NCBI GenBank assembly: GCA_000934665.2 | Contig: JYFJ02002930.1 | Span: 1 to 48,616 of the forward strand | DNA from: Catajapyx aquilonaris | Taxonomy: Eukaryota | Length of the DNA: 48,616 nt | Direction: 5' to 3' | Shown: in pieces, positions 2,811-47,988 of the stretch | Layout: each line of letters begins with the position of its first letter | How positions within the stretch are numbered: the first letter of the stretch is position 1 | Notes under the pieces: generated by a model | Database searches by the model: none | The model's input: only the letters and a program-made list of their open reading frames with translations | What the model was told of the DNA's origin: nothing | Program-made: the position numbers and the translations under genes

Positions 2811-3212
2811 TAAAAAAAAATAAATGATGTTGTATCATTCATAATGGCGATCAGGCTTGCATGGTAAATCTCCATTGTATTTGAAGTAGAACAATCTAGG
2901 TAGCTCTACATGGTTCTACATGCCGATACACCAAATTAATTTTTTTTTTTTACACTCGCAGGGTACTTAAGTGTTGTAAAATTGAATTGTAAATCTCAGT
3001 AAACTAGTGTATGTAAACCATTCGTCAAAGTGAATCAGAAGCTGGACACAGTCCTGTCACAGCAGCAACTTACAAGCAACTCGTATTATCAACCACCTAG
3101 TGAATGGTGAGGGTGCAGGAAAAGGTAGCGGTATGACAGTATGGCGGAGGAGGGCTGTCCCCTACCATGAAGTCCCGGCGGCTTCGTAAAGAGCCGTACG
3201 AGTGCATGCCTG

Positions 3213-4714
3213 CAAGAAGTTGACAATTTTTTGGGATCAGACAATAACACTGCGTTTTGTAGTGTCTGGCGACAGTTTTCTGCTGAATGATGCAGAGTTT
3301 GGGGCTGTAGTGTGTTGTCTAATGACCAACCAACGACTTTACACAGCGGCTGACTAGTGATGTGATGTCATGCCGTTGTAGGAACAAATTGGCGGTGAAC
3401 CTGCTGTACAACACACACATCATTTCTGTATCACCCCTGGACTCCATCATTACAAACAGCAAACTAGATATTAAAGGAAACGAGATCAATTGGATGAACG
3501 CGCAAGAAATTACGATGAAAAAATTCGCACCTTTCAACTTACGACGACACATTACATCCACCAGAAGTTGAGAATGCTTAGAGGCATACACAAATTGCAA
3601 TTATGAACGAGGCACATCAACCCTGCGCAGTAATGGATCACTGCTGTACATGACATGCCCCAAAACCCAGGCTGTAAGTTACCAATTAAGCCAGTGATTT
3701 AACCACTTGTTACTCAAAATTATTCTAATTACATATGGGCATGAACATTTGTATCCAGAGCTCAACTCAGCTGCCCAAGGTATTTAACGATCAGAACATA
3801 GCCAAACTACAATAAGGAATCACACCTTTTAAAGCAAACGACAATCATCATTGCTGCCTGCTGCTTTATGCTAATCCTTCTCACTGCCTTCCAGGCAGGG
3901 CGAAAACCAAACAATACAATGATCAACCTCACTTGCGGACAACTGGACAACCACAAGGTCACATAAAGCATACATACATGTGCAATACAGTGCCCTGTGA
4001 TTATGCATGTCAGCATCTCGCTTCCCCTGGTGGGGCTGAGACCCTGGGTGTGGCCCCTAGGCGGACACGGGGCCGGACACGTCTTCCCTGCAGCCAAACT
4101 CCTGGAGGAATGGAAGGGAGAGGGATGGCGCCTCAACGAGAGGCACAGCTAGAGTTGCGCAGAGTGGCCAGCGCCTCCAATCGTGGCAAAAGAGAACTGC
4201 CAGTCTCCATAAGCGCATAAGGGACGTAAGTGGAGCAGACCAATCAAACATGGCAGACATCACACCACTCTTAAATAATACGGAATAGTTGGGATCGACA
4301 ACGCTATTTCAAGTATTTGATGGCAGCTACTAGAAATATTAGGTTCACACTGAATAATTCCGAAGAACATGATCAAAATTGGACTAATTTTTGGACGTGA
4401 AATATTCTCCGGTTTCACTGCCAATCAGTGGCGACATTCATTCACCGAGAAGTACTTCAGGAGGTGCGGTAATTAACAGCCAGCTGATATTGGCAGCTGA
4501 TGTCCACTCCGGCGAGTAACTGTTATGAAGATGATTGCGTCACACGATGCAATACCAAACGGGCCGCTTTGAACGTGGCGTCACGAGCTGTGTCGTTTAT
4601 TAATTCGCAGCTTGATTCGTGTGGAATTTGTGCCCGAAACCCTTACAGTGTCTTCCTGTAAGCCCATAAAATGTCACATGCAGCTGATAAGGCTTCCATT
4701 TGCATGTAGTGTAA
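3213..4714 (+). repeat. Composite block, copy 1 of 3
   Basis: Colinear and highly similar to ~21515-22960 and ~41578-43100. The same short ORFs recur in the ORF track (3933, 22109, 42324). Confidence 0.95.
3216..3590 (+). pseudogene. Sola-like DNA transposase remnant inside the composite block
   Basis: TITLRFVVSGDSFLLNDAEFG..LYTAAD..VMSCRCRNK..PLDSIITNSKLDIKGNEINW resembles the F(L/V)VSGHS(F/Y)LP(N/C)D.DFG motif family. The superfamily call is tentative. Confidence 0.5.
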
Positions 4715-6619
4715 ATAAGTGAGGCCATGATCGGAAATATTGCACATAAATGAAAGGGCATTGCACACAAGCAGGTTACCCAAAACTTTTACACACACGC
4801 GACGTGAAAATGCAATAGGTTTGTCCTGATAATTATTACAAACTACCTCTCATCATAAAGATCCCATCTTCCAATGCACTATTTCCTTTCCAGCATCCTC
4901 GTTGGACCATAATTTTCTCATCCGTGACAGATGTAAAGCGAGGGTGTACTTGGCATCAGCTGATATGTGAAGAGGTATGCATCGAGCAGGTTAATACTGA
5001 CGATAACTAACCGATTTACGATACAAGAATCTAAGAAAGTATGACATTACGAAATGTGCCACCTGCATGGAAGTACCAGTATTAGGAAATTGTTTAGAAA
5101 GCAAGGCACGAGCGAATGATGCGAAGAAGCATTCCGACTATTTCGCACACGGAGGCGAATATCGCACCAATCTTCGGCACATGAGAAAGGCGACATACAA
5201 ATTAATGTGAAAGAGGCCATTCACAGGTTTTAAGGGTCAGACTTCCTGACAAGTTCAAGAAATTCCCACCCAGAAGCTGGCAGTTGGAAAATGACGATTA
5301 AGTCGTCCCAAAAGTATTTGACTAAAAAACGCGTACGCATGTTTATACCCTTCTTTCGCCAACTTGCAAGCGTCTTTTGTCCGTGAACTTACAGAAATGT
5401 GCGCGAAAACATCTAAGGAGAGGCAGGCTGACTTTCGCCGCAGACAGAAGGCGGCTGGGAAATATGAAGTGGACAAGGAAGCATGTAGGATTCGAATTGC
5501 TTCCATCCGAAAGAAACATAGTAAGATGCTATTATATGTTATTTTCAGGTTATTTTTGTGCCTGTTTGTTGTTATGACGGACAGAGAGAGACTTATGTTG
5601 TTCCCTTTTTGCAACTGTTCAAAATTGTCATATAAGTACTTAGTTTCATTTATGTGAACAAAATTTAATAAACAAGAGATGCAAAATGGAACGTTACATT
5701 GTTGTGGCCTTCACTTTCATCCTGAAAACTGACCTAGTTCCTATTTCAGTGCAGCGGAGCCATAATAAGATTATGAATTCACAGACATTCCAATCTCCAA
5801 AAATTTATGCTACTCCCAGTAAATCGCAGTAGGTTGTACGTAACGATGCCGGGTGGTACGTGACGGGTGGATATCTGAAATGTTTTCACGTTCAAAATGA
5901 GAATTCTCCCAATCTAATGGCATGATGAGGTTCCTACTGCCCCACATGTACTTGAGCTTCAAAACCTGTTCTGTCAGATTTCGCAGAGTTTCCCACTAGT
6001 TACACATACCCCAGAAAGTGGTGTCCAATGACGGATTGTACGTAACGAGATTTCAGACAATTGCACACGCGTGGATGGCCATCGAATGATATTTCCATGA
6101 TGTCCTTCACCTTCACATTTCTGCGCTGCATCTAATTTTCATAACAGTTAATTTATTACGGCAAGTACCTAGCCGCAGTGGACTCCTAAACACCTCAATA
6201 CAGCTTCCGATGGTCACTACATAACGCGTGGAATTGCCCTTAAAAGCCTTTCACGTGCAGTAGCGAGGTCCCTGGTTGCATTAGCTGGGCAATATCAACT
6301 CCGCAGCATCAGGCTGGACCTTGATGAGAACTAGAGTTGATCCAACATGTGATATTTTGAGCATTGTGAACCAATTTGATCCCCAGAGCCCAAAGCGAGC
6401 CCTTGATTTGTGTCTTAAGGCCATACATGCCACACAGAGTATGTACAATGAACAAAGCCAAAGACTGTGGCATTTACTAGAATGTATGACTTGCCACAAG
6501 GTATGTATGACTTGCCACAAGGTAGTGATGCCAATAAGCTGGATTATGAACAAGCACGCATGTTAGCCCAAGGAGTCAGTGCTGACTCCTGTCTGTGTCA
6601 AATTCATACCATGAGAGAA

Positions 6620-12832: not shown

Positions 12833-12985
12833 CATGTAACATCAGTTGAAAAAGAACTGTCCCAGTCATCCTGACGTGTGGGCTGGCCGCTCGACACACA
12901 CCATGTAAGTTACATGGTGTGTGTCGAGCGGGCAGCACACACATCAGGATGACTGGGACAATTCTTTTTCAACTGATGATACGTG
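12833..12985. repeat. 153-bp near-perfect palindrome/hairpin (MITE-like or foldback)
   Basis: Arm CATCAGTTGAAAAAGAA..CGCTCGACACACACCATGTAA pairs with TTACATGGTGTGTGTCGAGCG..TTCTTTTTCAACTGATG around a single base at 12909, with few mismatches. Confidence 0.95.
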
Positions 12986-13914: not shown

Positions 13915-14195
13915 GGCCAAGCAGTGCACGACCACATGTAACTGCACATGTTGACGAAACCAACTGCAATACTACCTAAAAATGAAGGGTGGAACACAAT
14001 CATAAAGAGTAGGCAAAATGAAGGTGCTCTCCTCGAAGAAAAGAAATACTTTAGCCCTCGTATTACTCATAATTAGCATGACTGTGCAATGCAGGATTTC
14101 ATACAGGATCAAGCAGAATGGGGTCTAATGGTCTTATGACGCATGTCAAATTACTTTTAAAAAACCAAGCCATTAAAAGGACCCACATATGCCTT
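13915..14195 (+). repeat. Duplicated block (paralog ~23069-23363)
   Basis: GCCAAGCAGTGCACGACCACATGTAAC...CCACATA(T/C)GCCTT is near-identical in both places. Confidence 0.9.
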
Positions 14196-14463
14196 CGAGG
14201 ACGACACAAGGGTGGTGATGCAGTACAGCCGCCAAGAGGTCGATGCGGGCAAAAGGGCTGACGAGGCCCGGGGGTCAGGGACCTCCTCCATGGTAAGCCA
14301 ACATTGATAAGCGCTCATCGTGAATTATTGAGGCTACCCGTTTCAACTGGACTTGCAGCCTTGAAGCTCATGAGGGAAGTTCCAGAAGCTAATCTCTTGG
14401 AATTGACGCTACCCGATTCAACTGGACTTGCACCCTTGTTGACAGTTGTCCAATGCTTGTAAA

Positions 14464-14507
14464 ACCATCTCTGACGAGTCCTTAAAGGACGAAACGCGTC
14501 AGGTGGT
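14464..14507 (+). ncRNA. Minimal type-I hammerhead ribozyme (Penelope-like-element/retrozyme type)
   Basis: ACCATCT-CTGACGA-GTCC-TTAAA-GGAC-GAAA-CGCG-TC-AGGTGGT. Stem I is ACCATCT/AGGTGGT, stem II is GTCC/GGAC, the CUGANGA and GAAA cores are intact, stem III is the palindromic ACGCGT, and the GUC cleavage triplet ends at 14500. Confidence 0.9.
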
Positions 14508-15566
14508 AACGAACTAAGTAAGGATGACTATCAACATTATGGATCAATACACGTTGTTGGAGGAATCGATGATGTAGAAGGTGTTTTTTGACCCGCCGTC
14601 CCCTGGGATAGTTACTTACCTAACCTTATGTCCGTCATGGATGGCCAGGGGCAGACGTGGTGTCCGGCAGGCGCCAATGAATTCATTCCACCGGATTTAC
14701 AACATGTACTTCAGGCATCAGAGTTACGACAACAAGTGCCACAGGCTACAGGGTCTGCTGTACAATATGGTATGCCTGCCCAGACCGTTGCAGCACCACA
14801 TAAGCCTCAAACTCCTAGGTCTTATGTGCAATATGGAGTATCTGACCAGAATGTTTCAGGACAACGTACACGGTTACAATGGGCTTTCTGGGACAAGGAT
14901 GTGACGTTGTTTCAGCCTAGGCGGTGCTGGAAAAATTTGATGTGCCAACTTTGAACATGTTGGAGCAAAAATAAAAATAAAAACAAATCCGGCATTCCCA
15001 TTCCGTTTCCTCCCAGCTCAGCTCCCACGTCCCACCTCCAAAAGTGAGTATCAATTTGAAATCTAATGTGCATAATGCAAACATAGTACTATACTGTATA
15101 GGTAGTTTTTGCGCTTCCATAAAAAACTATGTAAAAGTAGAAAATACAATCCACTTCCAACAGGTTGACACCACTAGTATGCGATCAATACGGCGAGTGA
15201 CACACGCCTTCAATCGGGGAAGAAGCGATGTCAAATACAATCGAGTCATCCTTGATACCAGTAGCCATGGAAGATAAATCGAGAAGGACACAGAGCGAGA
15301 CAGGGTTGCATGAGCCGATTGAATGTCAATCATGACATTTCTGTTGATGTGTAAACCTGGTTGCCGTTACCAGTAGTAACACAGTCGCATAGTCCACTGA
15401 AATAATGATTGTGAAAAAGAGTGTTTTTAAATTTTCTTAAACACTCATATACTACTTGCAAATGAAGCACTGTTCTGAGTTTTGAATGGAATCTGAGTCA
15501 GCTAAATCACTGTCACGCTTTGGTAACAACGCTTCCCACAAATGTGTCGGTGTGCAATGTCCAGTG

Positions 15567-16095
15567 ACATTTTGAGACGCATCATAAGGACAAGTAAGAC
15601 TGTCTAAAAGGGAACGTGAGAAGTGAAAAAATACAGGCTCTAAGGAGGAACTTTGTTGCCCAACAAAGCATATTTACACGACATTTCCAATCTAACGAAG
15701 CATCAGTTAGAGCTAGTTTTAAGGTGGCGCAATTGACCGCAGAGAAGGGTAAGCCGTTTTCTGATGGGGAATTTGTGAAGTCATGTGTGAAGGCTGTCAT
15801 GGAAGAAGTGTGCCCTAATAATACAAATTTGATCAATGATCTGTGCCTATCTGCTCGTACTATCACTAGACGAGTGAAAGATATCGGGGACCATTATTTT
15901 GTTAGATAAGTTGCAAGAAAGGGCCAAAATGTTCACATACCATTCAATTGCACTTGAGAGCAACGATAGGGACAGTGCTCAACTACTAATTTTTGTAGGG
16001 GGAATAGATGATAACTTTCCGATCACAGAAGAACTCGCAGGACTTGCAAGTATGAAAGGAACTACAGGGGAAGACTTGTTTGTGAGAGTCTGTCA
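15567..16095 (+). pseudogene. hAT transposase remnant, GTF2IRD2/SPIN-like, N-terminal part
   Basis: HFETHH..ASFKVAQLTAEKGKPFSDGEFVKSC..VCP..LSARTITRRVKDI..HSIALES.D..DSAQLLIF..EEL..MKGTTGEDLF. Confidence 0.9.
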
Positions 16096-16736
16096 AGTTA
16101 TAGATGTCCGTGCTTTCACCATACGCGTTACATCCACTACTCACATCAGGTTAGTGACAAATATGCCAAGCAAAGCCAGTTGCCTTAGAAAGACACGGAA
16201 GGCAAAATATGCAACGGATCATGATAGCAGAGACGTGAAATACAAGAATCCAGTGACAAGGGGGAAAAAAAACAATCAGACACATCGAGAGGCAATACGA
16301 AAAAGGCAGAAAAGGTACGATACAGAGCATCGGGAGTACATAAGGTAGAATTGCAGAAACTACAAGTCAGAACATCGAGAGGTCATAATCATGAGTCATA
16401 ATATACAATAAAGAGAACATAGTTAATAAGGAAGAAGGTTAAGCATCAGGACTGGAGACGGAAGCTGGCAGCGGAATATTGCCAGAGAGGAATGATCACT
16501 CGCATCCATAAGGCCTTGCTGATTAGAAGCAGGCAGAAGAAAGGAGACGGATTGGGCAACGGCGCTTCCCAAAAGATTGCCCAGCATATGGTTCTAAGGG
16601 CGCTTGATAAGAAGCGACTGCTCTTCGCTCTCGCAAGCGGTGCCTGGCAACTGTGCAGCAGAGCCTGGCGGTTGGACATCTCAAGACAAGTGCGAAGAGT
16701 GCCTCATGTACAGTACGCATCACAATGACGAAAATC

Positions 16737-21247: not shown

Positions 21248-22995
21248 CTATTCACAATTAAAACATGTTTAATGAGCAAAATTTTGCAGACCTGTGTTAA
21301 ATGACGTATCTCAAAATTTGGGCAACCCTTCATTTGACCAAGAGTTTGAGTATTTTGAAACCTTCATAAATCTGCAAGACATGGACACAGCAATTGAAGC
21401 CATTTGAATCAATCATCGGCCTGCCATGTTTTGACACTATATGCATGTGCAAGTACCAAATAAGATGATCAACCCCAGGACAACCTACAACCCATGACGA
21501 CACGGTACATATCTGCCAGAAGTTGACAATCTTTTGGTATCAGACAATAACACTGCGTTTTGTAGTGTCTGGCGATAGTTTTCTGCTGAATGATGTCATG
21601 CCGTTGTAGGAATATTGGCGGTGAACCTGCTGGACAACACACACATCATGTCTGTATCCCCCCTGGAATCCACCATTACAAATAGCAAATTATATATTAA
21701 AGGAAACAAGATCAATTGGATGAACGCACAAGAAATTATGATGAAAAAATCCGCACCTTTCAACTTACGACAACACATTACATTCGCCAGATGTTGAGAA
21801 TGTTTAGAGGCATACACAAATTGCAATTATGAACGAGGCACATCAAGCTCAATCCTGCGCAGTAATGGATCACTGCTGTAGGCTACATGAAATGCCTTAA
21901 AATCCAGACTAAGTTACCAATTATGCCAGTGACTTAACCACTTGTTACTCAAAAATTATTCTAATTACAATTGATCTGGGCATGAACATTTGTATCTAGA
22001 GCTCAACTCAGCTGCCCAAGGTATTTAACGATCAGAAGATAGCTCAACTGCAATAAGGAATCACGCCTTTTAAAGCAAGCGACAATCATCATTGCTGCCT
22101 GCTGCTTTATGCTAATCCTTCTCACTGCCATTCAGGAAGGGCGAAAACCAAACAATACGTACAATGATCAACCTCACTTGCGGACAACTGGACAACCACA
22201 AGGTCACATAATGCATACATACATGTACAACACAGTGCCCGGTGATTATGTATGTCAGCATCTCGCTTCCCCTGGTGGGGCTGGGACCCTGGGTGTGGCC
22301 CCTAGGCGGACACGGAGCCGGACACGTCTTCCCTGCAGCCGTACTCCTGGAGGAATGGAAGGGAGAGGGATGGCGCCTCAACGAGAGGCACAGCTAGAGT
22401 TGCGCAGAGTGGCCAGCGCCTCCAATCGTGGCAGAAGAGAACTCCCAGTCTCCATAAGCGCATAAGGGACGTAAGTAGAGGAGACCAATCAAACATGGCA
22501 GACATCACACCACTCTTAAATAATACGGAATAGTTGGGATCGACAACGCTATTTCAAGTATTTGATGGCAGCTACTAGAAATATTAGGTTCACACTGAAT
22601 AATTCCGAAGAACATGATCAAAATTTGATTTATTTTTGGACGTGAAATATTCACCAGTTTCACTGCCAATCGGTGGTGACATTCATCCACTGAAAAGTAC
22701 TTCAGGAGGTGCGGTAATTAACAGCCAGCTAATACTGGCAGCTGATGTCCACTCCGGCGAGTAACTGTTATGAAGATGATTGCGTCACACGATGCAATGC
22801 CAAACGGGCCGCTTTGAACGCGACGTCACGAGCTGTGTCGTTTATTAATTCGCCGCTTGATTCGTGTAGCAGTTGAACGAAACCCTTAATAGTATCTTCC
22901 TGTAGCCCATAAAATGTCCCATGCAGCTGATAAGCCTTTCATTTGCATAATAGTGTAATTCAGTGTAGTACTCTAATGTAATGCAAACAGTGACT
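21247..22995 (+). repeat. Composite block, copy 2 of 3
   Basis: Colinear with 41306-43145 over its full length and with 3213-4714. It has a ~70-bp deletion at ~21595 bounded by TGATG microhomology. Confidence 0.95.
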
Positions 22996-24651
22996 CCCAC
23001 CGGGCCGGGGCCTGGCTGCCGATACCACACTGCGCTTTTCATCCTTCAGTACGAAAAGTTGTCGCTCAAGCCAAGCAGTGCACGACCACATGTAACTTCA
23101 CATGTTGAAGAAACCAACTGCAATACTACCTAAAAATGAAGGGTGGAACACAATCATAAAGAGTAGGCATAATGAAGGTGCTCTCCTCGAAGAAAATAAA
23201 TACTTTTGGCCTCGTATGACTCATAATTAGACTGCATAATGAGCATTACTGTGCAATGCAGGATTTCATACAGGATCAAGAAGAAGGGGGTCTAATGGTC
23301 TTATGACGTATGTTAAATTAGTTTTAAAAAACCAAGCCATTAAAAGGAAACCACATACGCCTTGTGCCAACTTTAATGCTTTAAAAATAGTGCAAATACT
23401 GTCCCGCAGTGGAATGCGAAAAATATCTACTAAGGTTATTGGTCCAAAAATGCGACGAACACTACTTCACTAATTCCATAACATGGCTTTGAACATATTC
23501 CAAATGAGCAAGACCTCCAGATATTGTGCCGATACATTTGATGGAAGCCCCACGATTTTGTACCAAATGGGTAAAATACAAGGGGTTAATGTACCATACA
23601 GGCAGCAGCATTGGAAACTCTTCCCCATGTTGCTCCAGAGGACAGAGAATTGGCCTTTGAAAAAGGCGATGACAGCATCCAATGAACAATATTGCAAGTC
23701 CCAAGCATTTCAGTTGATTGAATTTCAGTGTTCTAATCCCATCTGGCAGGTTAACGGTGTGCCAACGCCGGTAGATAAAATTGGTGGGCTTTAGAGCACT
23801 AGTTAGGTAAGCCCACCTAAAAATCGTCCTCTCTACCAGTATGCTAATCCCCTTGAGCCGCACACCCCACAGTACAAATTAACTGCTGTGATTATTACAC
23901 CCTTGGGAATACCCCCCCAAGTTCATGTCAACGTTGTTTCTTTGTGCTAGTACGCATATCAAGTAGTATGGTACGGAGGTAATTTTGCAGCGACGTAATG
24001 AATGAATAATTTGCTGCTTGAAACATTTGCTATACTCTGGAAGGAAACTTTGTGGGCTTGTTTGGTGAAATATTCATTCAATGAGAATTTGATGGATTTT
24101 TAATTTGAAATCACATGTGCTGTTTGTGAATTATTTACTCTGGGAAGTATGCACTTGGTATTACTTAACCTTAAGAGCACAAAGCATTATTTTCAGCCTC
24201 AGGATTATGATTCACCTTTTTATACATATGCTGTTCACTGATGATTAAAGTGAATATTCAACAACACCAGGAGGGTTTCCGCACATGAAATAGCAGCTCA
24301 CTTGAATATTCAGGAGTGAAAGGTTTTGTTAATTAATAAGCCAGGGAGAATTTGAACTTGCTGCTTGCTCCTGGGAGTGATGGCTTTGAACATATTCCAA
24401 ATGATGACTAAGACCTCCTGATGCATGAACTGTGCTGTATCCAGAATTTAAAAAAAAAAAACAAAAACAAACTACCTAATGTGGTCATTGGACACCATCT
24501 GTCCAAGTTGTTCTACTGATAAGAAATCGTTGTGCCCAATTCTGAAATGGTGAAAGAAGGCAGAAGAATAATCGTTGTGACACTAAGGAAACTAATATGA
24601 TGTGTTTTTCAGCTTCTGAAGTTCACACTAACATTATGAATGCATTTTTAG

Positions 24652-24768: not shown

Positions 24769-25029
24769 GTGAGTATCTCATTCACTTGTAAATGGTGATG
24801 CCGAAATGGCACTTTTGCAATAAATGAAACAACCTTGTGAAAGATGAGCCACCCATGTACACTATGTACCCATGTAAGTTCACACTAACATTATGAATGC
24901 ACATTTAGGCCGTCCCAACCACTGCCACCCTTACCACACCTGGGCCATCGTCCCCAGGGCCCCCGCCGGTTTTGATGCAGTGATTTGCAGGCAATATTTG
25001 GGAGATGCAATGATAAACGTTGATGCAGT

Positions 25030-25490
25030 GATTTGGAGGCAATATTTGGGGGAAGCATCTGTTGTCGAAATGATTCAGTACTACGCGAGCATCTTTTGCG
25101 GATCAAACTTGGGACAGAAGATATCAGTTTCCTATTTCTCACCCTCTCCTCAAAACGAGTTCATAGAAATACTCGAAAGGCAAGTTCGGAAGCAAGTTAT
25201 TCAGCAGGTGAAGGAAGCTAAGTACTTTTTATTATACTTGACGGTACACCGGATATTTCCCATGAAGATCAAACAAGTCAAGTTTTACGCTACGTAATAA
25301 TGGATGGAAAGACTGTTCAGGTGATGGAATCATTCGTTGATTTTATTGTAAACAAGAATAAGACAGCTGCGGAAGGTACGAAAATTATTCTGGACAAGTT
25401 AGAATATGATGGACTGGATGTCTCGAATTGCAGAGGGCAAGCCTACTACAATGCCGGTGTGATGAGTGGTCAACATCATAAAGTTCAGAA
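25030..25490 (+). pseudogene. hAT transposase remnant (ZMYM/Tip100-like), middle region
   Basis: SPSPQNEFIEIL..VRKQVIQQVKEAKYF..DGTPDISHEDQTSQVLRYV..ESFVDF..LDVSNCRGQAY.NAGVMSG. Confidence 0.85.
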
Positions 25491-25569
25491 ACTATTTTGT
25501 TCATCCTAATGACATTCATAAATTTGCTTATAGGGTGCTTAGTCCTAACGTGAATAGAAAAATTAGTAT

Positions 25570-27530: not shown

Positions 27531-27878
27531 ACAAATTTTTAGCTTGCTATTTCAAATGTCCGGGTCAATGTCTAATTATACCGTACTAGGCTGTTTGCTC
27601 TCTGGCTAAAGTAACCTAACCTAACCAACCCACAGCAGCAGTCCGACCGAGGAGAGGATCACCATCTTCGGCCATCAGCAGCACGCCGGAGCACCTACCA
27701 GCCCCGGAACGACCCTCCAGGATTCGCCGCACCTCAGAGCAGCATAGAAGTCACCTCCACCGCACAGCCCTGGCAGCCTTGACCATGGCCGCCTAGAGAA
27801 GCAGCTTTCCGCCCCGGGGTACGTCAGCTTGAAGTAGCATAACCTAACCACGACGCTGACAGGAACACTCCCTCCGGA

Positions 27879-28730
27879 ATGGAAGCCATCCGCCACCTGA
27901 CCGCAGCCAGCTGGAAGAGCGCCCAAGAATTTATTCAGTGCAACACGACCCAAGGAGAGATGGAAACCGACATCCGCAGCATCCACCTGACCAGGCACGT
28001 GGCAGACAAGCATGCCCGTGTATTCGACGCAGACTACTCTTTCCCCGAAATCAAACCTGTCCTGTGGGATTATTTCCAAGTCCACGCTCAGTTCACTCCC
28101 AATCCTATCCAGGGGGACGCCCCCCATCCCTTTGACCCCAAAGGACCCATTCCCGGCCAAGTGCTTGCAATCTACAAACAAGAACTTCACCAGCGTTCCC
28201 ACCTGGACGACCTGGAGAGAAGTATCGCTGCCATGGACCCGTACCACAATGTAAACATGCCGGACAACCATTACGTCCCCAACATACGACAGATGCCTCC
28301 GGGGTATTTCAACGGTGGAGACGCAGCAATGAGGGTTTTTGGCATCGAACTGACCTCCTTCCACTACACCCACAAACGTTGGCTACTTCTGGACACCATT
28401 GCGCTGAAGCGGGAGAAGTGGGCACTACTCACAGAGGAGGAGAAGGCCAGCGCACAGCTGGAGATGGACCGATGGAAGACATACCGGGTACCGAGATACC
28501 TTCGCAGCCAAAAAACCTTCATGGAGCAGCCCAAATGCCGCTTCCCAAAAAAGTATGTCACGCTACAGATGGCAACCACCACCCGCCTACAGCCGTCAAC
28601 AGCCACCCTCCACCAGCAGCCATCCCGCCCGAATTCCTCTTCGCACCCCACATGGCCCAACCCCAGAGGGGGAGACAGGAATCGGAGAGGACAGCAACGC
28701 CGCCCGGGGGAGCAACAATACTCATCTTGA
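27879..28730 (+). CDS. Hypothetical 283-aa protein, no recognised family; basic, low-complexity C-terminus
   Basis: Longest ORF in the window, uninterrupted, with an ATGG start and a globular-looking first ~225 aa. Confidence 0.5.
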   Translation: MEAIRHLTAASWKSAQEFIQCNTTQGEMETDIRSIHLTRHVADKHARVFDADYSFPEIKPVLWDYFQVHAQFTPNPIQGDAPHPFDPKGPIPGQVLAIYKQELHQRSHLDDLERSIAAMDPYHNVNMPDNHYVPNIRQMPPGYFNGGDAAMRVFGIELTSFHYTHKRWLLLDTIALKREKWALLTEEEKASAQLEMDRWKTYRVPRYLRSQKTFMEQPKCRFPKKYVTLQMATTTRLQPSTATLHQQPSRPNSSSHPTWPNPRGGDRNRRGQQRRPGEQQYSS

Positions 28731-28907
28731 GGAGGACGCGGACCCGCCAACTACGGGACAGGCCAACCAGGTCCAGCACAGCATCACCGAGACCCACAAG
28801 GAGCAGGACGATCCATGCCTAACCAACTTCAAGCCGCCACGCAGCAGCACCCACCAGATACAGCGGCAACCAACCACTACAGCCATCGGGACCCCCGGAG
28901 ATCAGGA

Positions 28908-29181
28908 GGTTTGGTTTGGTTTGGTTTATTAGGAAGAAGCCAAAGCAACTGTGGCTATCTGGCTGTAGAAGAAGCAAAGGTGGGACAGATGGAGAGAGAA
29001 ACGAAGAGGAAAAAGAAGAGAGGAAAGACTGGCATCTCTCTTAGTCTGTCTCCTATCCCACAGACCTGTCCGGCTTGGGAGGCCCTACCAGTAGACGAAG
29101 CTACCGCCGGCATAGCTCTTGGGGTCACGGGAGAAACGCAAACCCCACCACCACGATAAGGTGGAGATACCATCGGGGGGG
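28908..29181 (-). mobile_element. Short non-autonomous retroposon: RTE-like 5' head plus (AAACC)n tail
   Basis: The minus strand begins CCACCTTATCGTGGTGGTGGGGTTTGCG..TGACCCCAAGAGCTATGCCGGCGG..GGTAGGGCCTCCCAAGCCGGACAGGTC, like the conserved RTE LINE 5' UTR. It ends ATAGCCACAGTTGCT..AATAAACC(AAACC)3. I did not see a clear TSD. Confidence 0.7.
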
Positions 29182-29862
29182 CTTGCGTTGCACGTATAAG
29201 CCCTCTGATTGGTCCGCCCCCGTATTGTTGCCGCCACCTAATCCTATTGGCCCCCGTCCATTGTTGCTGCGTCGTATCCAAGCCCCCGTCCCGCAACACC
29301 CTTCAGATGTGGGTACTGCGGGCAGGGTACGGCCCACTGACCAAAACCGGGATCTGGACCACAGCTTGGGACACCCCCACACACCGGAATCCAGTTCCAG
29401 TGCTGTCCAGCAGCGAGCTGCAGACCTGACCACCCGGTTCCTACGAGACACCTTAGCCTCCATGAGCCTACAGCGCGACGACCATCCCGTGGACCCAGCA
29501 TCCCACGCCACAGCTTGGTGGAACGCAGCACCCGCCTACTAACGCAGCCTCCTTTCCACGGGACACGCATCCCAAATCCCACGATATCCGCTCCTTCCTG
29601 ATACCAATACGGAAACAGGGCTCTGCCCCTGCTATCTCGGCAGCCAACACCACTCCCCTGCCATCCAGGATACACCCCGCACCTCCGGACACCGCCAGTC
29701 CAGCACACACCAGGAGCAGCCAGATCCTGAAAGCGGTCATACCAAGACCGACAGAAGTATCCCGGGAGATACAAGCAGCACCTCCGTCGAATCGGACCAA
29801 TGCAATCGGTCGTGCCAAAGAAGAGTGGCTTCACCGAATGAATAGTCCTGAAGGCAAACATT

Positions 29863-30228
29863 ATGGGCTTCGCACCACCCACTGCAACCGCCATTACACA
29901 AGCCCTGTCCCCGGTCTGGGAATCCATAGAGGAGCTTCTCCCTGCCGAGGACAGGACTGAAGCCAGACGTCATTTCTTCCTGACAGACCTGCCCACACCC
30001 CGCCCTCAGTATTCACCACTCCCTTCAAAAAGCTGGTTCTCATGGATTGGGAACCAGCCGGACATCTCCACCCTACCGACATCCCTCACTCCACTTGCCA
30101 ATCAATTTACCAAACTGCTGAACCTGCCCCCCCTCCCTGAACTCAAAACCATCCTGGACAGAAAACTGGCCACCCCCACCATCAAAGTCAGACCCCAAGT
30201 CCGCATTATTTACACAGTTTTGCCTTGA
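29863..30228 (+). CDS. Hypothetical 121-aa Pro/Leu-rich protein of the GC-rich island
   Basis: Intact ATG ORF followed about 80 bp later by AATAAA (30308). Confidence 0.35.
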   Translation: MGFAPPTATAITQALSPVWESIEELLPAEDRTEARRHFFLTDLPTPRPQYSPLPSKSWFSWIGNQPDISTLPTSLTPLANQFTKLLNLPPLPELKTILDRKLATPTIKVRPQVRIIYTVLP

Positions 30229-30799
30229 TCCCCCCGGGGGAGTGTTGCCCGGGTCGTGGTCATTGCCTAATCCGCCCCTCCCGCCCTCCTTCCCCCAAAT
30301 CACCCCAAATAAACACCTTTTCACATACACCAGACAACGCAACGCACCTCCCACTCCCGCCCGCCTCCCAAGACCGTGGGGCCATGGGGCCTTGATTACA
30401 AGTAACCTAACCTACCCTACCGAGCGGGTTCGATCTTCGATGCACTCTGCTCTGCCCCTGGGCCGGTGGCCCCCTTCGTCAAGCTGGGAATCCCATTAGG
30501 GAAGTTCCAGAAGCTAACCTTTTGGAATTGAGGAATGGGTATGGCTGGGCTTAATCCCAGACAGACTGAAAGTTAAACACACTATTCATTTCATTTGGAT
30601 TCAGGTCGTCTCCCGCCAAGATTGATTTAGTCATGTCATGCGTCCAAATCTTCCCACTTGTGACCAAGCTAGGTGACACATCTTTCAATTTTCCATGGCA
30701 AGATGTGGTGAAAGCCACAGAAGAGAGCTGGACCTGGGCATACATATGCTGCCCTAACAAATTACACTAACCAAGATCAAAAGAACAACAAAGAACGAC

Positions 30800-31399: not shown

Positions 31400-32110
31400 A
31401 TACTTCTCTACATTAGATTTAACTCTGGTTATTGGCAGGTAAACATTTCTTCGGACGATCGTCCTAAAACAGCTTTCTCTACCCCTGTTGGAGGTCTCTG
31501 AGTTCAACGTGCTCCCTTTTGGGCTAGTTAACGCACAGTCTACTTTTCAACGACTCATGGAGCAGATCTTAGCAGGACTGACGTGGGAAAAATGCCTCAT
31601 CTATCTAGATGACTACTGGTCTTTTCATCAACTTTTTCGGAGCATCTTCAACGCCTTGAAGATGTGTTCCTTCGGTTGCAGACTGCAAACCTAAAGATGA
31701 AACCAGCTAAATGTCAATTCGCCTTATCCGAGATTAAGTATCTAGGTCATGTGGTGAGTCAGCAAGGTATTCATCCAGATCCTGGGAAGATAATAAGTGT
31801 CACCGCTTTCCCCCAACCCAAAACGGTAAAAGAGGTCCGAGCATTCATCGGCCTCGCCTCATATTATCGCCGTTTTGTGCCAAAGTTTTCCGAGGTCGCC
31901 AAACCTCTTCACGCTTTCACCAGTACGAAAGCCACGTACAAATGGGGAAAACAGGAACAACTTGCTTTTGACACGTTGAAGCAGAAACTAACTACAGCTC
32001 CAATCCTTGCATATCCCAGATTTACCGAGCCTTTTCGGATCTACACCGATGCCAGTGGTATCGGTATTGGGAACATCTTAGCCCAAATACAAGACGGCAA
32101 AGAAAGCAGC
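31400..32110 (+). pseudogene. Gypsy/Ty3 LTR-retrotransposon reverse transcriptase and start of RNase H (fragment)
   Basis: YFSTLDL..GYWQV..DRPKTAFSTP..FNVLPFGL.NA.STFQRLM..YLDD..KCQF..YLGHVV..F.GLASYYRRFV..TAPILAYP..YTDASG. Frameshifted, no LTR seen. Confidence 0.95.
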
Positions 32111-34293
32111 TTCTAATTGCAGGTTCTGGTGCATTATTATGCTTATTGCCACGAACAAATCATGCCATAAAATGACAGCAGTCAATGAAAACATTACTTC
32201 TATTTTCTTGCCCTGGCAGACATACTGGTGAAGATGATGAACCCCTACGGTTCGAACTAATATGCAATGCTTTTGGGATGCAAGGAAGTACTCTTGTGGC
32301 TCACAACAAGCCCGCGCGCGAAAAAAGCATCATTAAAACAACCCTCGCCCTGGGGCCGAGAGATGTCTCCTGCCTTCCCTTCTATCCGAGCTGTGAGAAA
32401 CGGTGCGATATCAAACACATTCATCCTACGTTGCATTGAGGACTATGACTTGAGGACCAAAAACCATAACCGACAATGACCCTTTCAAGTTCAGTTTCAT
32501 ACTTTATTGCATCAACAAACTAGTTCAAACTCAACAATGTTTCCAACGCTGTCAATAATCACTGTGTAACTTCTTACTCCAGCCATATTTGCTACATTTT
32601 GGAACCAGTAATTCAAAATAATACGAGGAGGAGCTGATTCCAAAGAAAAGATAGACGCATTGATTAAAGAAGATCCAGACGCACATTTATGTCCTCAATC
32701 AGCAAGGGGTTTCACACCCAAAATTACAACCTGGACAGAAGGCGAGCGTCCTAGCATAAAGAGTACAATACAAGGGTATAAAGGGTACAATACCCACCTC
32801 ATGTAATCCACATATTAGAACAAATAAATTCACAATGCGCCACAAAATTATCCAGATTGAAGGTACATATGAAAAAAGAGTAGACACCTTAATTACAGCA
32901 AACTGAACCGAGAGGAGGTGACATCTTACCCTTGAACCAGGGGATTGAAATATAAAATCAAAACTGATGAAAAACTTTCTGATGAAGCATGACGACTCCG
33001 CTGCAATCAGGACAGGTCCAACTTGGGCACCATCCAAAAGCAGGTGGCAACATCCGACTCCTTCTCTTCCACCAATGTGGTAGATGTGGCATGTAGCGAT
33101 GGTGTATATCACACCATAGAAGTTAGAGCAGTTAACTTGGTCAACATCTGACAAATTATTCCGATGTGAGTGCAGCATCTGATACTTTTGCTTTCTCTCA
33201 CAGAATATTTCATTGACTGCCTTAATACATTGCGTTAGAGGAAATCCAACATGATGGACAGAGTCCAGACACAGGGAATTAAACAGCCCTTCAGCGGACT
33301 TGCTCTTCAGATACAACGTAGCTCCTAAAAAAATTGGACCCACATTATGAAGTCATGAAGAGACACATTAGCTGCATGGCCGCAGTGACGAAGAATATCA
33401 TGGACCCCCAAATATGGCAACATGTATGAGATCCATACATACTGTATGTTGCAGAAGAATATTTAAAAATACACTACGCTTTGGAAAACACACCCATCAT
33501 TTGTCACGTTTCAAGTTTGCTCACAATGTAGCATACCTGGTAAATGTGTATCATGGGAGGGAAATGCATCAAGTTACGAAGAATGGTTCTGAAGTCATTC
33601 AAAATATTATTCCAAATGATTCTACAATACCATAGACATAACAGACCACCAAGACTCTTTACAACGCGTGAAGTTTGTCACACGAAAGTCGTAACAAAAC
33701 GTCATTTTGGAATTACACATCTCTTGATTGCATGCCAGAAATTTGGTTAATTCCACAATTGTTAAGGAATGAAACGGAATATTTGTACCAAGATTACCCG
33801 GTGGGGGCGACATTAAAAGGTTACATAGTGGTCAAAATTTAAACCGCATGGCTTTATGAGTAACGAAATTTAAAATGATTTCCCCCTGTAACCCTCGCAC
33901 ATGTCCGTCTCAAAGATTCAACCATTCTTATCACAAGAGATGAAAGTAAAATGCACACATGATACCAAAACAATATGGACCACGACTAAATAGAGGTGAA
34001 ATATTATTCATCAATTGGGAACTTTCTGGAACAATTGGAGCTTGTAGTAACCGCCAGACACATTTTCCGAGTTAGCGAAACGGCACAGTTACATGCAATA
34101 AAATATTACCGTCTGGTACATTCAGTTGCAGTAACATCGAAAACTGATCATTTTATCTTTCAAAAAGAGGCATTGACGGATGATCGAACTGAAGATTTAA
34201 TGTGCCTTATAGAGCCTTATAGGAACGTGGGGCAGGTTGTAATACTCTCAGTTCTCCTGTCCTTTCCACCACATTGTTCCCATAAAATCCAGC

Positions 34294-35375
34294 ACCGCAG
34301 AAAAAGGTAAGCCGTTTTCTGATGGGGAATTTGTGAAGGCTGTCATGGAAGAAGTGTGCCCTAATAATACAAATATGATCAATGATGTGAGCCTCTCTGC
34401 TCGTACTATCACCAGACGAGTGGAAGATTTCGGGGTCCATTTATTAGATAAGTTGCAATAAAGGGCCAAAATGTTCACATACCATTCAATTGCACTTGAT
34501 GAGAGCAACGATGTTAGGGACAGTGCTCAACTACTTTGTACGATGAATAGATGATAACTTTCAGATCACAGAAGAACTTGCAGGACATGCAAGTATGAAA
34601 GGAACAACTACAGGGGAAGACTTGTTTGTGTGACTCTGTCAAGCAAGCTTGGATTGACTTGGGACAAGCTGAAATGCATCACAACCGATGGTGCCCGAAA
34701 CATGACAGGAAAACGTTCTGGCGTGGCAGCGCGAATCAGCAGGGAAGAGGAAAAATTTAATGCCAATCTTCCCATCATGCACTTGCACTGTATAATTCGC
34801 CAGCAGGCATTATGCAGCAAAGTACTTCAAGTGCAATGGGAATCAATGATGAACGTGGGCGTTTCGAATGTCAACTTCATCCGACGACATGGGCTGAACC
34901 ATCGTCGGTGCCAACAGTTTCCTTCGGATATTTGGTCAGAATACGGTGATGTTGTGTACTACACTGAGGTTAGATGGCTAAGCAGAGGGAAGGTTCTCCA
35001 GCGATTTTTTGAGCTGGGTAGTGAGAGAGACGTATTTCTCACAGAAAAAGGAAAGCCTAAAGCGGAGCTGTCCGATCCTCAGTGGATTTTTGATTTAGCC
35101 TTCCTGTGCGACGTAACTGAACTATTGAATGGCTTAAATATGCGACTGTAGGGTAAGGGCAAACTTGTACCTGAAATGTACTCGGAGGTCGAGGCGTTTG
35201 AGGCAAAACTTGCTCTCCTAACAGAACATGTCAGTGAGGGAAACTATGCACATTTTCCATGATGCAAGCTGACTTTGAATGACTTCAACAATCAACATGT
35301 CATCCGATGCTGATAATGACAAAGTATGCTCAGGGATTGCAATTATAGCAATGCGAATTCCAAGGTTTAGGAATA
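34294..35375 (+). pseudogene. hAT transposase remnant, GTF2IRD2/SPIN-like, central part
   Basis: SIALDES.D..ITTDGARNMTG..HCIIRQQALC..VNFIR..LNHR..YYTEVRWLSRGKVLQRFF..DLAFLCD. It overlaps in sequence with 15736-16090 and 2267-2555. Confidence 0.92.
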
Positions 35376-39400: not shown

Positions 39401-39694
39401 GTAATGTGTTGCATGTAGTAATTTTTACATATGGTACAGGGCTGAAAAACGTAGCCTTGTATCCAGGCAAGAACTGTGTAGTGGAGAATTTTTAGCATGA
39501 AAATATGACTAATTGAATTTTGGAGCAGCAGGGCTTAACTAGGGTTTTCAATACTCATTAATTATTTCGGGTTTTAAATGAACTGACATTTAATGCACGT
39601 CAGACTGGTACTATAGACCTTTACTCATTGCAGCCACTGTTGAATGACCTTGGCTGTGAAGACCCGAATGCTAGTGGGAGCACTTATGAAGATG

Positions 39695-39790
39695 AATTAG
39701 GTTTAGGGTACACAGTGTTGGGTAAAATATTTGGCATCCATAGGACAACTGCCTCGGACATTTTCAATGCTATCCTTACAAATCTCATAT
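39695..39790 (+). pseudogene. Helix-turn-helix fragment of a PIF/Harbinger-ISL2EU-type transposase
   Basis: LGLGYTVLGKIFGIHRTTASDIFNAIL. Confidence 0.55.
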
Positions 39791-40519
39791 TGCATAATTG
39801 ATAATGGCGACATGGCTCGCATGGTAAATCTGTCCCATTGTAAATTTGTAGGAAAACAACCTAGGTAGCTCTAGATGGTTTGCTTCTATGCCGATACACC
39901 CAATTTATTCTCTCTTTTTTTACACTCGCAGGGCACAAGTTTTGTAACATTGAATTGTAATTGGTGGTGAAATGTACAATGTATGTAAGGGAAGTATCTC
40001 TGAAAATACCGTAAGGTGCTCGTATAAAATAAATCTAACCAACAATTCTGTGGGGGCGTCATCTTTTCCTCTCCTGTACCCGAACGGACAGGGGAGGAAG
40101 CATGAATTATTGTCCTAGCCAGTTTGTTGCTGTTGGCTGGCCGTAAGACAATAGGTTCAATGTCATTCCCTGCTGTCGTCTTTTCCTCTCCTGAATTCAT
40201 ACGAAAGCCCAGATCCCTCGAATGCCTTCATTATTGGAAAGCAACTGAGTGTCGTTCCTTCCTGTTGTATTATGGACCATATGTATTCCCTAGCATTTTA
40301 CCACATAAGCACTATTGTCATTTCTTGCTGTTACATTGTGCAATTTTTATTTTATTTGGCGATCGAGTACTTGATTCATCTTGGTTGTCTTTTCCCCAGA
40401 ACGTATACATTAGTGAATCACGAGCTTGTCCTTAATCAAATAGACTTTTTAAAATATCAAAGTGTCATCAATCACAAATGATGATCATATGTCGGGACCC
40501 GTCGCGATGTATGTTACAC

Positions 40520-41305: not shown

Positions 41306-43145
41306 ACTATTCACAATTGAAATATGTTTTATGAGCGAAATTTTGCAGACATGTGATAAATTACCGATCTCAAAATTTGGGCAACCCTTCATTTGACCAA
41401 GAGTCTGTATTTTGAAACCTTCATAAATCGGCAAGAAGACATGGACACACAGGAATTCAAGCCATTTCAATGAATCATCGGCCTGCCAGGTTTTGACACT
41501 ATATGCATCTGCAAGTACCAAACAAGATGATCAACCCCAGGACAACCTACAACCTCTGACGACACGGTACATATCTGCCAGAAGTTGACAATTTTTTGGT
41601 ATCATACAATAACACTGCGTTTTGTAGTGTCTGACGATAGTTTTCTGCTGAATGATGCAGAATTGCGACTCTAGAGTGTTGCGTGAAGAGTAAAGACCAA
41701 CCAACGACTTTACACAGGGGCTGACTATATTGATGTGATGTCATGCCGTTGTAGGAACAAATTGGCGGTGAACCTGCTGGACAACACACACACATCATGT
41801 CTGTATCACCCCTGGAATCCATCATTACAAATAGCAAATTATATATTGAAGGAAACAAGATCAATTGGATGAACGCACAAGAAATTATGATGAAAAAATC
41901 CGTACCTTTCAACTTACGACGACACATTACATCCGCCAGAAGTAGAGAATGCTTAGAGGCATACATAAATTGCAATTATGAACGAGGCACATCAAACTCG
42001 ACCCTGCACAGTAATGGATCACTGCTGTAGGCTACATGAAATGCCTTAAAACCCAGACTGTAAGTTACCAATTAAGCCAGTGATTTAACCACTTGTTACT
42101 CAAAATTATTCTAATTACATTTGATCTGGGCATGACAATTTGTATCTAGAGCTCAAATCAGCTGCCCAAGGTATTAAACTATCAGAAGATAGCCCAACTG
42201 CAATAAGGAATCGCACCTTTTAAAGCAAGCGACAATCACCATTGCTGCCTGCTGCTTTATGCTAATCCTTCTCACTGCCATACAGGCAGGGCGAAAACCA
42301 AACAATACAATGATCAACCTCACTTGCGGACAACTGGACAACCACAAGGTCACATAAAGCATACATACATGTATAACACAGTGCCCTGTGATTATGCATG
42401 TCAGCATCTCGCTTCCCCTGGTGGGGCTGGGACCCTGGGTGTGGCCACTAGGCGGAAACGGGGCCGGACACGTCTTCTCTGCAGCCGAACTCCTGGAGGA
42501 ATGGAAGGGAGAGGGATGGTGCCTCAACGAGAGGCACAGCTAGAGTTGCGCAGAGTGGCCAGCGCCTCCAATCGTGGCAGAAGAGAACTGCCAGTCTCCA
42601 TAAGCGCATAAGGGACGTAAGTGGAGGAGACCAATCAAACATGGCAGACATCACACCACTCTTAAATAATACGGGATAGTTGGGATCGACAACGCTATTT
42701 CAAGTATTTGATGGCAGCTACTAGAAATATTAGGTTCACACTGAATAATTCCGAAGAACATAATCAAAATTTGACTAATTTTTGGACGTGAAATATTCAC
42801 CAGTTTCACTGCCAATCAGTGGAGACATTCATCCACTGAAAAGTACTTCAGGAGGTGCGGTAATCACCAGCCAGCTAATATTGGCAGCTGATGTCCACTC
42901 CGGCGAGTAACTGTTATGAAGATGATTGCGTCACACGATGCAATACCAAACGGGCCGCTTTGAACGCGACGTCACGAGCTGTGTCGTTTATTAATTCACC
43001 GCTTGATTCGTGTGGAAGTTGAACGAAACCCTTACAGTGTCTTCCTGTAAGCCCATAAAATGTCACATGCAGCTGGTAAGCCTTTCATTTGCATATAGTG
43101 TAATTCAGTGTACTCGAATCTAAATCTAACGCAAACAGTGACTCA
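41306..43145 (+). repeat. Composite block, copy 3 of 3
   Basis: Colinear with copies 1 and 2, and ends at GCAAACAGTGACTC like copy 2. Confidence 0.95.
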
Positions 43146-46953: not shown

Positions 46954-47988
46954 CAGGGTTGTGAACCGAACCGAACCCTTGCTCCGTGAACCCGATAACA
47001 TCGAAGCCGCTCCGGAGTCTGGAGCGAGCGTCGGAACGGGGTACGGGTTCAAGCCGGTTCAGGGGAAGAGTGGAGTGAAGGTCTGAGCTGGTTCGGAGCG
47101 AACGGCTCTGGAGTTGAACCCGGTTCAGGAGCGGGGTTCGGAGCGGTTCAAAGCTTGGTTAGGTACAACATACCAACCCAACAGGGGGAAAGGCAGCAAA
47201 ACCGCTGGATTTACTCCAGAGTATGCATCATGTTTTCATGGTGGGAGAATGACATTTCCAAGCACCCGCGATACAGGGTGTACCGTACATGTCACATTTT
47301 CATGTCATGCACATTTTGGTATGTTACAATATGTCATACGCATTTTTTGGATGTCACATTCTCATGTCATGCACATTTTTGTATGCTACAATATGTCATA
47401 CGCATTTTTGAATGCCTCAATATCCCATACCCTTTTTTTGGATGTCACATTCTCATGTCATATGCATTTTTTGTATGTTACAATAATATGATATTGTCAC
47501 ATACAAAAATGTGCATGACATATTGTAGCATACAAAAATGCGCATGACATGAAAATGTGACATTTACGGTACACCCTGTATCGCGGGTGCTTGGAAATGT
47601 CATTATCCCACCATGAAAACATGATGCATACTCTGGAGTAAATCCAGCGGTTTTGCTGCCTTTCCCCCTGTTGGGTTGGTATGTTGTACCTAACCAAGCT
47701 TTGAACCGCTCCGAACCCGATCCGGAACATGCTCTGAACCCCGCTCCTGAACCGGGTTCAACTCCGGAGCCGTTCGCTCCGAACCAGCTCCGACCTTCAC
47801 TCCACTCTTCCCCTGAACCGGCTTGAACCCGAACCCCGTTCCGCCGCTCACTCCGGACTCGCTCCGCCCTTGGCTCCACTGAACTCCGGAACCGCCTTGA
47901 ACCCGTACCCTGTTCCGACGCTCGCTCCGGAGCGGGTTCAATGTTAACCGGTTCACGGAGCAAGGGTTCGGTTTGGTTCACAACCCTG
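46954..47988. mobile_element. Non-autonomous hAT-type foldback element with ~400-480 bp inverted arms
   Basis: TIR CAGGGTTGTGAACC / GGTTCACAACCCTG, 8-bp TSD GGAGTGGG (46946-46953, 47989-47996), GAACC subterminal repeats, and ~62-bp tandem repeats in the centre. Confidence 0.92.

Follow-up and report, generated by a model that had tools for sequence, protein, structure and literature searches.

What left a solitary hammerhead ribozyme motif among the broken transposon ORFs of Catajapyx aquilonaris, and might its transcript still cleave itself? The motif lies in a 48,616-nucleotide stretch of contig JYFJ02002930.1, the whole of which was analyzed and is henceforth termed the window. An initial sequence-only reading had called it an intact minimal type-I hammerhead, and had assigned such ribozymes with a short palindromic stem III to Penelope-like elements and retrozymes, in which they often cleave as dimers. 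The literature agrees with this assignment: both Penelope-like elements and retrozymes carry type-I hammerheads of animals whose helix III is very short and palindromic, and it is in dimeric form that these ribozymes cleave best (PMC4209133, PMC7229834, PMC6155905, PMC6765202).

The motif occupies positions 14464–14507 of the forward strand. Direct reading divides it, together with the flanks that pair in the predicted folds, into the following features.

14464–14470, + strand: 5′ strand of helix I, ACCATCT, forming 7 bp with 14501–14507 including one U-G pair; Rfam aligns six of the seven
14471–14477, + strand: catalytic core CTGACGA (C3-U4-G5-A6-C7-G8-A9), read directly and equal to the upper-case RF00163 consensus
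14478–14490, + strand: helix II, GTCC/GGAC, with loop 2 TTAAA (TAA if a U-A pair forms); pair probabilities 0.85–0.99
14491–14494, + strand: core G12-A13-A14 and A15.1 (GAAA), from direct reading and the Rfam alignment
14494–14499, + strand: helix III element ACGCGT, by direct reading a perfect palindrome whose length does not allow it to close alone, with CGCG at 14495–14498 and T16.1 at 14499
14500–14501, + strand: C17 of the GUC site and the predicted scissile bond, with the cut between 14500 and 14501
14501–14507, + strand: 3′ strand of helix I, AGGTGGT, from direct reading and the Rfam alignment
14437–14463, + strand: 5′ arm of a helix I extension (AAA on the loop 1 side, then closing stems), from 86- and 100-nt folds
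14508–14536, + strand: 3′ arm of the same extension (AACGA on the loop 1 side, then closing stems), from the same folds

Every position of the conserved type-I core is present (C3 U4 G5 A6 N7 G8 A9, G12 A13 A14, A15.1-U16.1 and an H17 that is not G). The topology is likewise that of type I, with three helices around the core, both ends of the motif in helix I, and G10.1 (14478) paired with C11.1 (14490) to close helix II. The position of the scissile bond follows from hammerhead numbering. Judged by its sequence, 14464–14507 is a structurally complete type-I hammerhead, for which self-cleavage is a prediction. Direct reading thereby bears out the complete CUGACGA/GAAA core and the 7-bp stem I with one G-U pair of the sequence-only reading, the core and six of the seven pairs also recovered in the Rfam alignment, as well as its palindromic ACGCGU stem III and its GUC site with an expected cut after 14500. 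The 4-bp stem II with a UUAAA loop that it described is one of two equivalent readings; ViennaRNA draws 5 bp and a UAA loop.

The motif is more than a chance match. We built a type-I descriptor that requires 5 bp or more in helix I, CTGANGA, 3 bp or more in helix II, GAAA, 0–12 nt, and then T followed by a base other than G. On both strands of the whole window it finds one locus, 14464–14507. Among 300 dinucleotide-preserving shuffles of the entire window, a single one contained any descriptor match, none contained a match with a palindromic helix III, and none equalled the observed motif. A very loose core-only pattern, with 2 matches against 2.68 expected, is uninformative.

The check proposed in the sequence-only reading, a search with the Rfam hammerhead covariance models, gave a match at an E-value threshold that stays below the family cut-off. 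Hammerhead_1 (RF00163) aligns over its full length, model positions 1–45 of 45, with 14465–14506 (+) at 30.9 bits, 3.1 bits short of its gathering score of 34, a threshold that is a curators' cut-off rather than a structural feature. The E-value is 7.3e-6 in a 401-base search and 8.8e-4 in a search of the whole window. At gathering thresholds the window as a whole returns no Rfam match; all hammerhead families, among them HH9 and HH10, stay below their gathering scores. Among the 14 Rfam matches in the whole window with E up to 5, Hammerhead_1 is the sole hammerhead; the remaining matches fall on long inverted repeats with a resemblance to microRNA precursors. All upper-case consensus positions are present in the RF00163 alignment, and the score falls below threshold because, relative to the consensus, loop 2 lacks one base and the helix III loop lacks two.

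Predicted folds place conditions on activity. For the isolated 44-mer, the lowest-energy fold is not the catalytic one: the core CUGACG pairs with CGUCAG, which spans the cleavage site, at predicted energies of −15.4 kcal/mol for the inactive and −11.6 kcal/mol for the catalytic fold, and the helix of the inactive alternative has pair probabilities of 0.74–0.99. Helix III, an A-U pair around CGCG, cannot close alone. The ACGCGU element can pair intermolecularly over 6 bp with its counterpart in another copy, the hexamer self-duplex having a predicted energy of −7.5 kcal/mol. Cofolding of two copies yields an extended duplex at −38.4 kcal/mol, a value that is not evidence on dimer activity since the method is blind to the double hammerhead, a pseudoknot in that notation. 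Helix I continues beyond its 7 bp: after an internal loop (5′ AAA, 3′ AACGA) the flanks pair again, which gives a predicted hairpin of about 100 nt (14437–14536) with the ribozyme at its tip. An inverted repeat (14437–14451 / 14522–14536) underlies this extension. The 86-nt fold of 14445–14530 has a z-score of −3.28, with 1 of 200 shuffles as stable, and the 100-nt hairpin still reaches −30.9 kcal/mol with the core held open. We rejected a longer, rod-like fold of the flanks (14200–14800, 601 nt; z = −1.13, 3 of 20 shuffles as stable), as these values lend no support to structure outside the ~100-nt hairpin.

Neither the descriptor nor Rfam finds a second hammerhead on either strand of the 48.6 kb. 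A search for partial copies across the window gave best scores of 22–27, within the null range set by the maxima of 30 shuffled queries (21–28). Two segments that looked like half-hammerheads by eye and in MAFFT alignments were rejected, as 36 of 300 shuffles (14192–14220) and 281 of 300 (14255–14300) score at least as high. The head-to-tail repeats of 150–450 bp that characterize retrozymes are absent from the hammerhead locus, which shows no tandem array. With one hammerhead in the window, 14464–14507 is at most a monomer derivative or a truncated remnant, and dimeric cleavage in cis is impossible here, there being no partner copy in the window.

The boundaries of a carrier element were sought in the local repeats. 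In 450 of 2000 shuffles there is a flanking repeat as good as or better than the sole candidate target-site duplication, TTGTTG at 14436–14441 and 14554–14559. Local repeats are limited to a direct repeat of 37 nt (14327–14363 / 14402–14438; 92% identity, 75 nt spacing), whose second copy stops exactly where the ribozyme hairpin starts. On a larger scale, the hammerhead lies in a 1.5-kb segment (14196–15735) that has no other copy in the window and is bordered by repeats on both sides: upstream, 13916–14195 matches 23070–23363 at 90%, and downstream, 15736–16097 matches 34294–34643 at 86.5%. As the segment itself recurs nowhere in the window, the window does not demonstrate a mobile origin for it; given a single copy, no array and no significant target-site duplication, the carrier element cannot be delimited from the window alone. 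A 44-nt block just upstream of the hammerhead (14363–14406) recurs 16 kb away at 30488–30531 with 88.6% identity. It contains GGGAAGTTCCAGAAGCTAA..TTGGAATTGA and a small hairpin. Alignment with 30330–30620 shows that the two loci have only a 44–55-nt block in common, with nothing else around it alike; the block might be the conserved core of a short repeat family.

The surroundings are repeat-rich eukaryotic DNA of about 39–57% G+C with one N, many dispersed repeats of 75–94% identity, and fragments of hAT, Ty3/gypsy and Harbinger transposons. A hAT transposase belonging to the GTF2IRD2/ZBED5/DUF4371 group has left decayed copies at 15598–16345, 24878–25506 and 33990–35148. Within them, hAT/GTF2IRD2-like pieces were recognized at 25222–25506, through a weak Pfam DUF4371 match, and at 34558–35148; the piece at 15598–16345, which has no Pfam match, was assigned on visual inspection and because 15736–16097 resembles 34294–34643 at the DNA level. 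The hAT ORF has a best database identity of 63%, with named matches from fishes, frogs, snakes, aphids and arachnids, and the hAT/GTF2IRD2-like family was the only one confirmed in a protein atlas. A Ty3/gypsy-type RT/RNase H fragment at 31443–32113 is split over two frames (RT_RNaseH_2, E 1.1e-16; best database identity 57%), and a Harbinger-type helix-turn-helix lies at 39562–39798. Neighboring transposon ORFs are broken while all core positions of the hammerhead are present, and the description of an undamaged motif amid decayed coding fragments in the sequence-only reading stands.

The window holds several further repeats. A near-perfect palindrome at 12833–12985 (76-nt arms, 92% complementary, 1 nt between them) matches Rfam mir-2483 at 49.5 and 45.6 bits on the two strands, against a gathering score of 75, and has the look of a foldback hairpin or MITE, not of a microRNA gene. 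Nested inverted repeats at 46954–47988, with arms of up to 214 nt at 97%, surround tandem repeats of 29, 62, 74 and 91 nt; several plant-type MIR families match there far below their thresholds, and the region looks like a foldback-type element. A dispersed repeat of about 1.5 kb is present in three copies of 92–94% identity (3202–4721, 21505–22999, 41567–43147). ORFs in two of them gave weak Kringle matches (E 0.0084 and 0.0035; 16.9 and 18.1 bits against a cut-off of 34.3) that are probably spurious; this comparison covers these two copies, the same-position ORF of the third having fallen outside the Pfam scan. A G+C-rich block (27600–30400, up to 57% G+C) contains long overlapping ORFs on both strands. 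For its longest ORF, 27843–28727 (295 aa), Pfam gave no family and a search among proteins of 162–517 aa gave no homologue; the gypsy-type RT follows downstream on the same strand, and the ORF may belong to that retroelement.

Do coding sequences near the motif identify its carrier? The Pfam scan covered 142 of the 169 stop-to-stop ORFs of at least 75 aa in the window; most of the remaining 27 are frames that overlap one another in the G+C-rich block, and one is the ORF with the N. The only RT among the scanned ORFs is the Ty3/gypsy-type fragment at 31443–32113 (RVT_1 and RT_RNaseH_2). Between 12.9 and 17.6 kb, 97 ORFs (85 of 30–74 aa and 12 longer) include none with an RT or GIY-YIG match at E up to 0.1. 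That neither a Penelope RT nor a GIY-YIG sequence is visible, as noted in the sequence-only reading, thus holds for both sets of ORFs. The Penelope organization, a single RT and GIY-YIG ORF between two direct repeats, was not found in these searches, nor was a second pLTR. The same ORF scans revealed no recognizable host exon near the hammerhead. A 120-aa ORF at 14592–14951, starting 85 nt downstream of the ribozyme, was considered as a coding link and rejected: a search of 1.84 billion representatives gave one weak, repeated match to a bacterial Ig-repeat protein, which we judged spurious. ARAGORN detects no tRNA-like sequence in the whole window, a search that degenerate SINE heads would escape, and inspection by eye recognized no A or B box. 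About 75 nt downstream of the hammerhead lies a run of six T (14583–14588).

We compared the motif with published hammerhead systems. Their dimensions distinguish two kinds. The canonical metazoan type-I hammerhead is described with 6 bp in helix I, 4 bp in helix II, and 1–2 bp in helix III, which ends in a palindromic loop of 2–4 nt (PMC4209133), and sits in non-LTR retrozymes with repeats of 150–450 bp (PMC7229834). In the axolotl HHR_Amex1, one base pair is topped with a palindromic tetraloop, and cleavage is poor as a monomer and good as a dimer (PMC7229834). The Penelope min-HHR instead has a helix II of 7–8 bp, a helix I of 4–5 bp and one extra base before helix II (PMC4209133). With the canonical satellite DNA or retrozyme type (newt and salamander satellites, axolotl HHR_Amex1, RF00163), 14464–14507 shares the C7 core, the GUCC/GGAC helix II, a helix I of 6–7 bp and a helix III cut down to A-U around a palindromic CG tract; by analogy, dimer-dependent cleavage would be expected. 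It differs in being a single copy, whereas the canonical type forms tandem units of 150–450 bp. The RNAs of animal retrozymes are self-paired linear and circular molecules of about 170–400 nt, and the self-paired hairpin predicted around this ribozyme measures ~100 nt. The motif agrees with the canonical description on all dimensions tested and departs from it in the tandem array. What it has in common with the min-HHR of Cervera and de la Peña 2014 (PMC4209133) is the type-I topology, the palindromic 15.2–16.2, G10.1-C11.1, presumed dimer action and frequent isolated copies. The published min-HHR differs in its 7–8-bp helix II (4–5 bp here), its 4–5-bp helix I (7 bp here) and its unpaired base before helix II (none here), so that 14464–14507 departs from the min-HHR pattern, in which helix II has 6–8 bp, helix I has 4–5 bp and an unpaired base separates position 9 from 10.1. 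By these published descriptions the motif fits the canonical satellite or retrozyme type better than the Penelope min-HHR, because of its 7-bp helix I, its 4–5-bp helix II, the direct junction of A9 and G10.1, and its looped helix I extension. Of the "minimal" type-I architecture claimed in the sequence-only reading, type I therefore stands, and the dimensions match the canonical satellite or retrozyme kind and, less well, the Penelope min-HHR.

Two further systems share parts of the motif. The Schistosoma mansoni Sm-alpha ribozyme (AF036740), as given in Table 2 of PMC5666329, has the same 14-nt GGACGAAACGCGUC, the GUCC helix II and C7. It differs in loop 2 (CAAAUA there, UUAAA here) and has an unrelated helix I sequence; SINEs of the Sm-alpha kind carry a tRNA-derived head with an internal pol III promoter ahead of the ribozyme, and no SINE-like promoter was recognized here in the whole-window ARAGORN search. 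The amniote intronic hammerheads HH9 and HH10 (RF02275, RF02277) are also type I and are thought to derive from retroelement copies (PMC6155905). They differ in that neither family reaches its gathering score in the window, where Hammerhead_1 scores best.

Relatives of the motif were also sought in a prokaryotic genome collection. A strict motif pattern has no match in its 185,579 bacterial and archaeal genomes, and a relaxed pattern matches 21 loci. Ten of the 21 were scored with Rfam, and none has anything in common with the window outside the ribozyme core. Two loci (L007 and L020) lie on scaffolds of less than 500 bp in the assemblies of two marine bacteria, with RF00163 scores of 63.3, 41 and 54.8 bits; L007 carries two hammerhead copies 358 nt apart, the classical tandem arrangement. 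They share with 14464–14507 the string CTGACGAGTCC...GGACGAAACG..CGTC, 29 nt at 89.7% identity, and differ in their helix III palindrome, CGCGCG there and CGCG here. As their similarity to the window ends with the ribozyme core, L007 and L020 represent a different repeat family; they look like animal satellite or retrozyme DNA that contaminates bacterial assemblies. Three other loci, two of them on one 22-kb contig of a sponge-symbiont MAG (L014 and L015) and the third being L001, carry identical hammerhead-like motifs with a GUCC/GGAC helix II and a palindromic ACAUGU helix III. The L014 and L015 copies are about 1.75 kb apart on this contig, which is filed as bacterial. No Rfam hammerhead family matches any of the three at E 0.01; either sponge (host) DNA within the bin or a dimer-type hammerhead of bacteria could explain them.

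Which element, then, left the motif behind? Non-LTR retrozymes, which are small and non-autonomous, are relatives of the terminal repeats found in Penelope-like elements. We take 14464–14507 to be a genuine, complete type-I hammerhead gene, probably left as a single copy by a ribozyme-bearing retroelement, which would be a monomer of an animal non-LTR retrozyme. In favor of this reading are the motif statistics, the canonical architecture, the sequence shared with the RF00163 consensus and the S. mansoni ribozyme, the helix I extension and the repeat-rich setting. The sub-gathering Rfam score, the lack of a tandem array and of a significant target-site duplication, and the inactive lowest-energy fold stand against it. 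The solitary state of the copy is compatible with a retroelement origin, because a bioRxiv preprint (2026.07.22.740005) reports monomer derivatives, evenly distributed along Xenopus chromosomes, and PMC4209133 states that most hammerhead motifs are single elements. The latter ascribes these single motifs mostly to truncated elements, which lends some weight to a doubtful alternative, namely that the motif is no retrozyme monomer but what remains, as 3′ tail or pseudo-LTR, of a Penelope-like element with severe 5′ truncation. Penelope hammerheads lie in the pLTRs, near the 3′ ends according to a figure legend, and Penelope insertions are often heavily 5′-truncated (PMC8557442). The two readings also overlap, since retrozymes are relatives of Penelope pLTRs and interleave with them in phylogeny according to the preprint. 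A Penelope remnant is opposed by the ORF scans, which show no RT or GIY-YIG remnant upstream or downstream and a 120-aa downstream ORF that is without a real homologue. The helices of the motif are also unlike those of the published min-HHR (helix II of 4–5 against 7–8 bp, helix I of 7 against 4–5 bp), and the unpaired base between A9 and G10.1 is missing.

Other readings carry less weight. Recruitment by the host, in which the hammerhead would work in cis within a host transcript, for instance in an intron or 3′ UTR as proposed for amniote intronic hammerheads, would accord with an intact motif beside broken transposon ORFs, and the long, internally looped helix I could permit monomer activity (PMC6155905); yet no host exon was recognized nearby, Hammerhead_1 is the best Rfam family with HH9 and HH10 below their gathering scores, and the inactive fold is predicted to be favored, which makes such a role very unlikely. 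Taken more broadly, as either a monomer-active hammerhead recruited for a host transcript or the whole unit of a family of hairpin retrozymes of about 100–120 nt undescribed in the host, a departure of this kind from the preferred reading seems quite unlikely. A SINE-like element transcribed by polymerase III and carrying a hammerhead, like the Schistosoma Sm-alpha family, could account for helix II and helix III strings equal to those printed for the S. mansoni ribozyme (PMC5666329), for the six-T run at 14583–14588 and for the recurrence of the 44-nt block upstream. We regard it as highly improbable, given that ARAGORN found no tRNA-like head anywhere in the window, that an A or B box was not recognized by eye, and that the loci at 14363–14406 and 30488–30531 have nothing but the 44–55-nt block in common. 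A fortuitous resemblance to the hammerhead consensus by a sequence that was never a ribozyme would suit the sub-gathering score and the single occurrence. It is extremely unlikely in view of the shuffles, of which 0 of 300 are as good and 1 of 300 has any relaxed-descriptor match, and of a full-length model match at a whole-window E of 8.8e-4 with every highly conserved consensus position present.

For a retrozyme monomer, the following course of cleavage can be proposed. In a + strand transcript, helix I (7 bp, extended to the ~100-nt hairpin) and helix II (4–5 bp) would frame the conserved core, and the 2′-OH of C17 (14500) would attack the next phosphate to leave a 2′,3′-cyclic phosphate and a 5′-OH. 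Pairing of the ACGCGU palindrome with that of a second copy would create a double hammerhead as the stable catalytic fold; a second copy would be needed because helix III cannot close alone. Since the 48.6 kb contain no second copy, 14464–14507 probably cleaves poorly or not at all, and may still be cut on meeting sister-copy transcripts or by way of the helix I extension. Most likely the locus is a relic whose cleavage is poor unless a partner is present.

By itself the locus carries little weight, as hammerheads of this kind are already well known and very numerous in some animal genomes, with copy numbers in the thousands for Schistosoma, Xenopus and coelacanth and of about 126,000 for axolotl (PMC4209133, PMC7229834). 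Its bearing on annotation is that a complete hammerhead with a helix III two bases under the Rfam consensus falls just below the gathering score, so that annotation at default thresholds will miss such copies. For the host, the locus marks the genome as a past carrier of ribozyme-bearing retroelements, be they retrozymes or Penelope-like elements.
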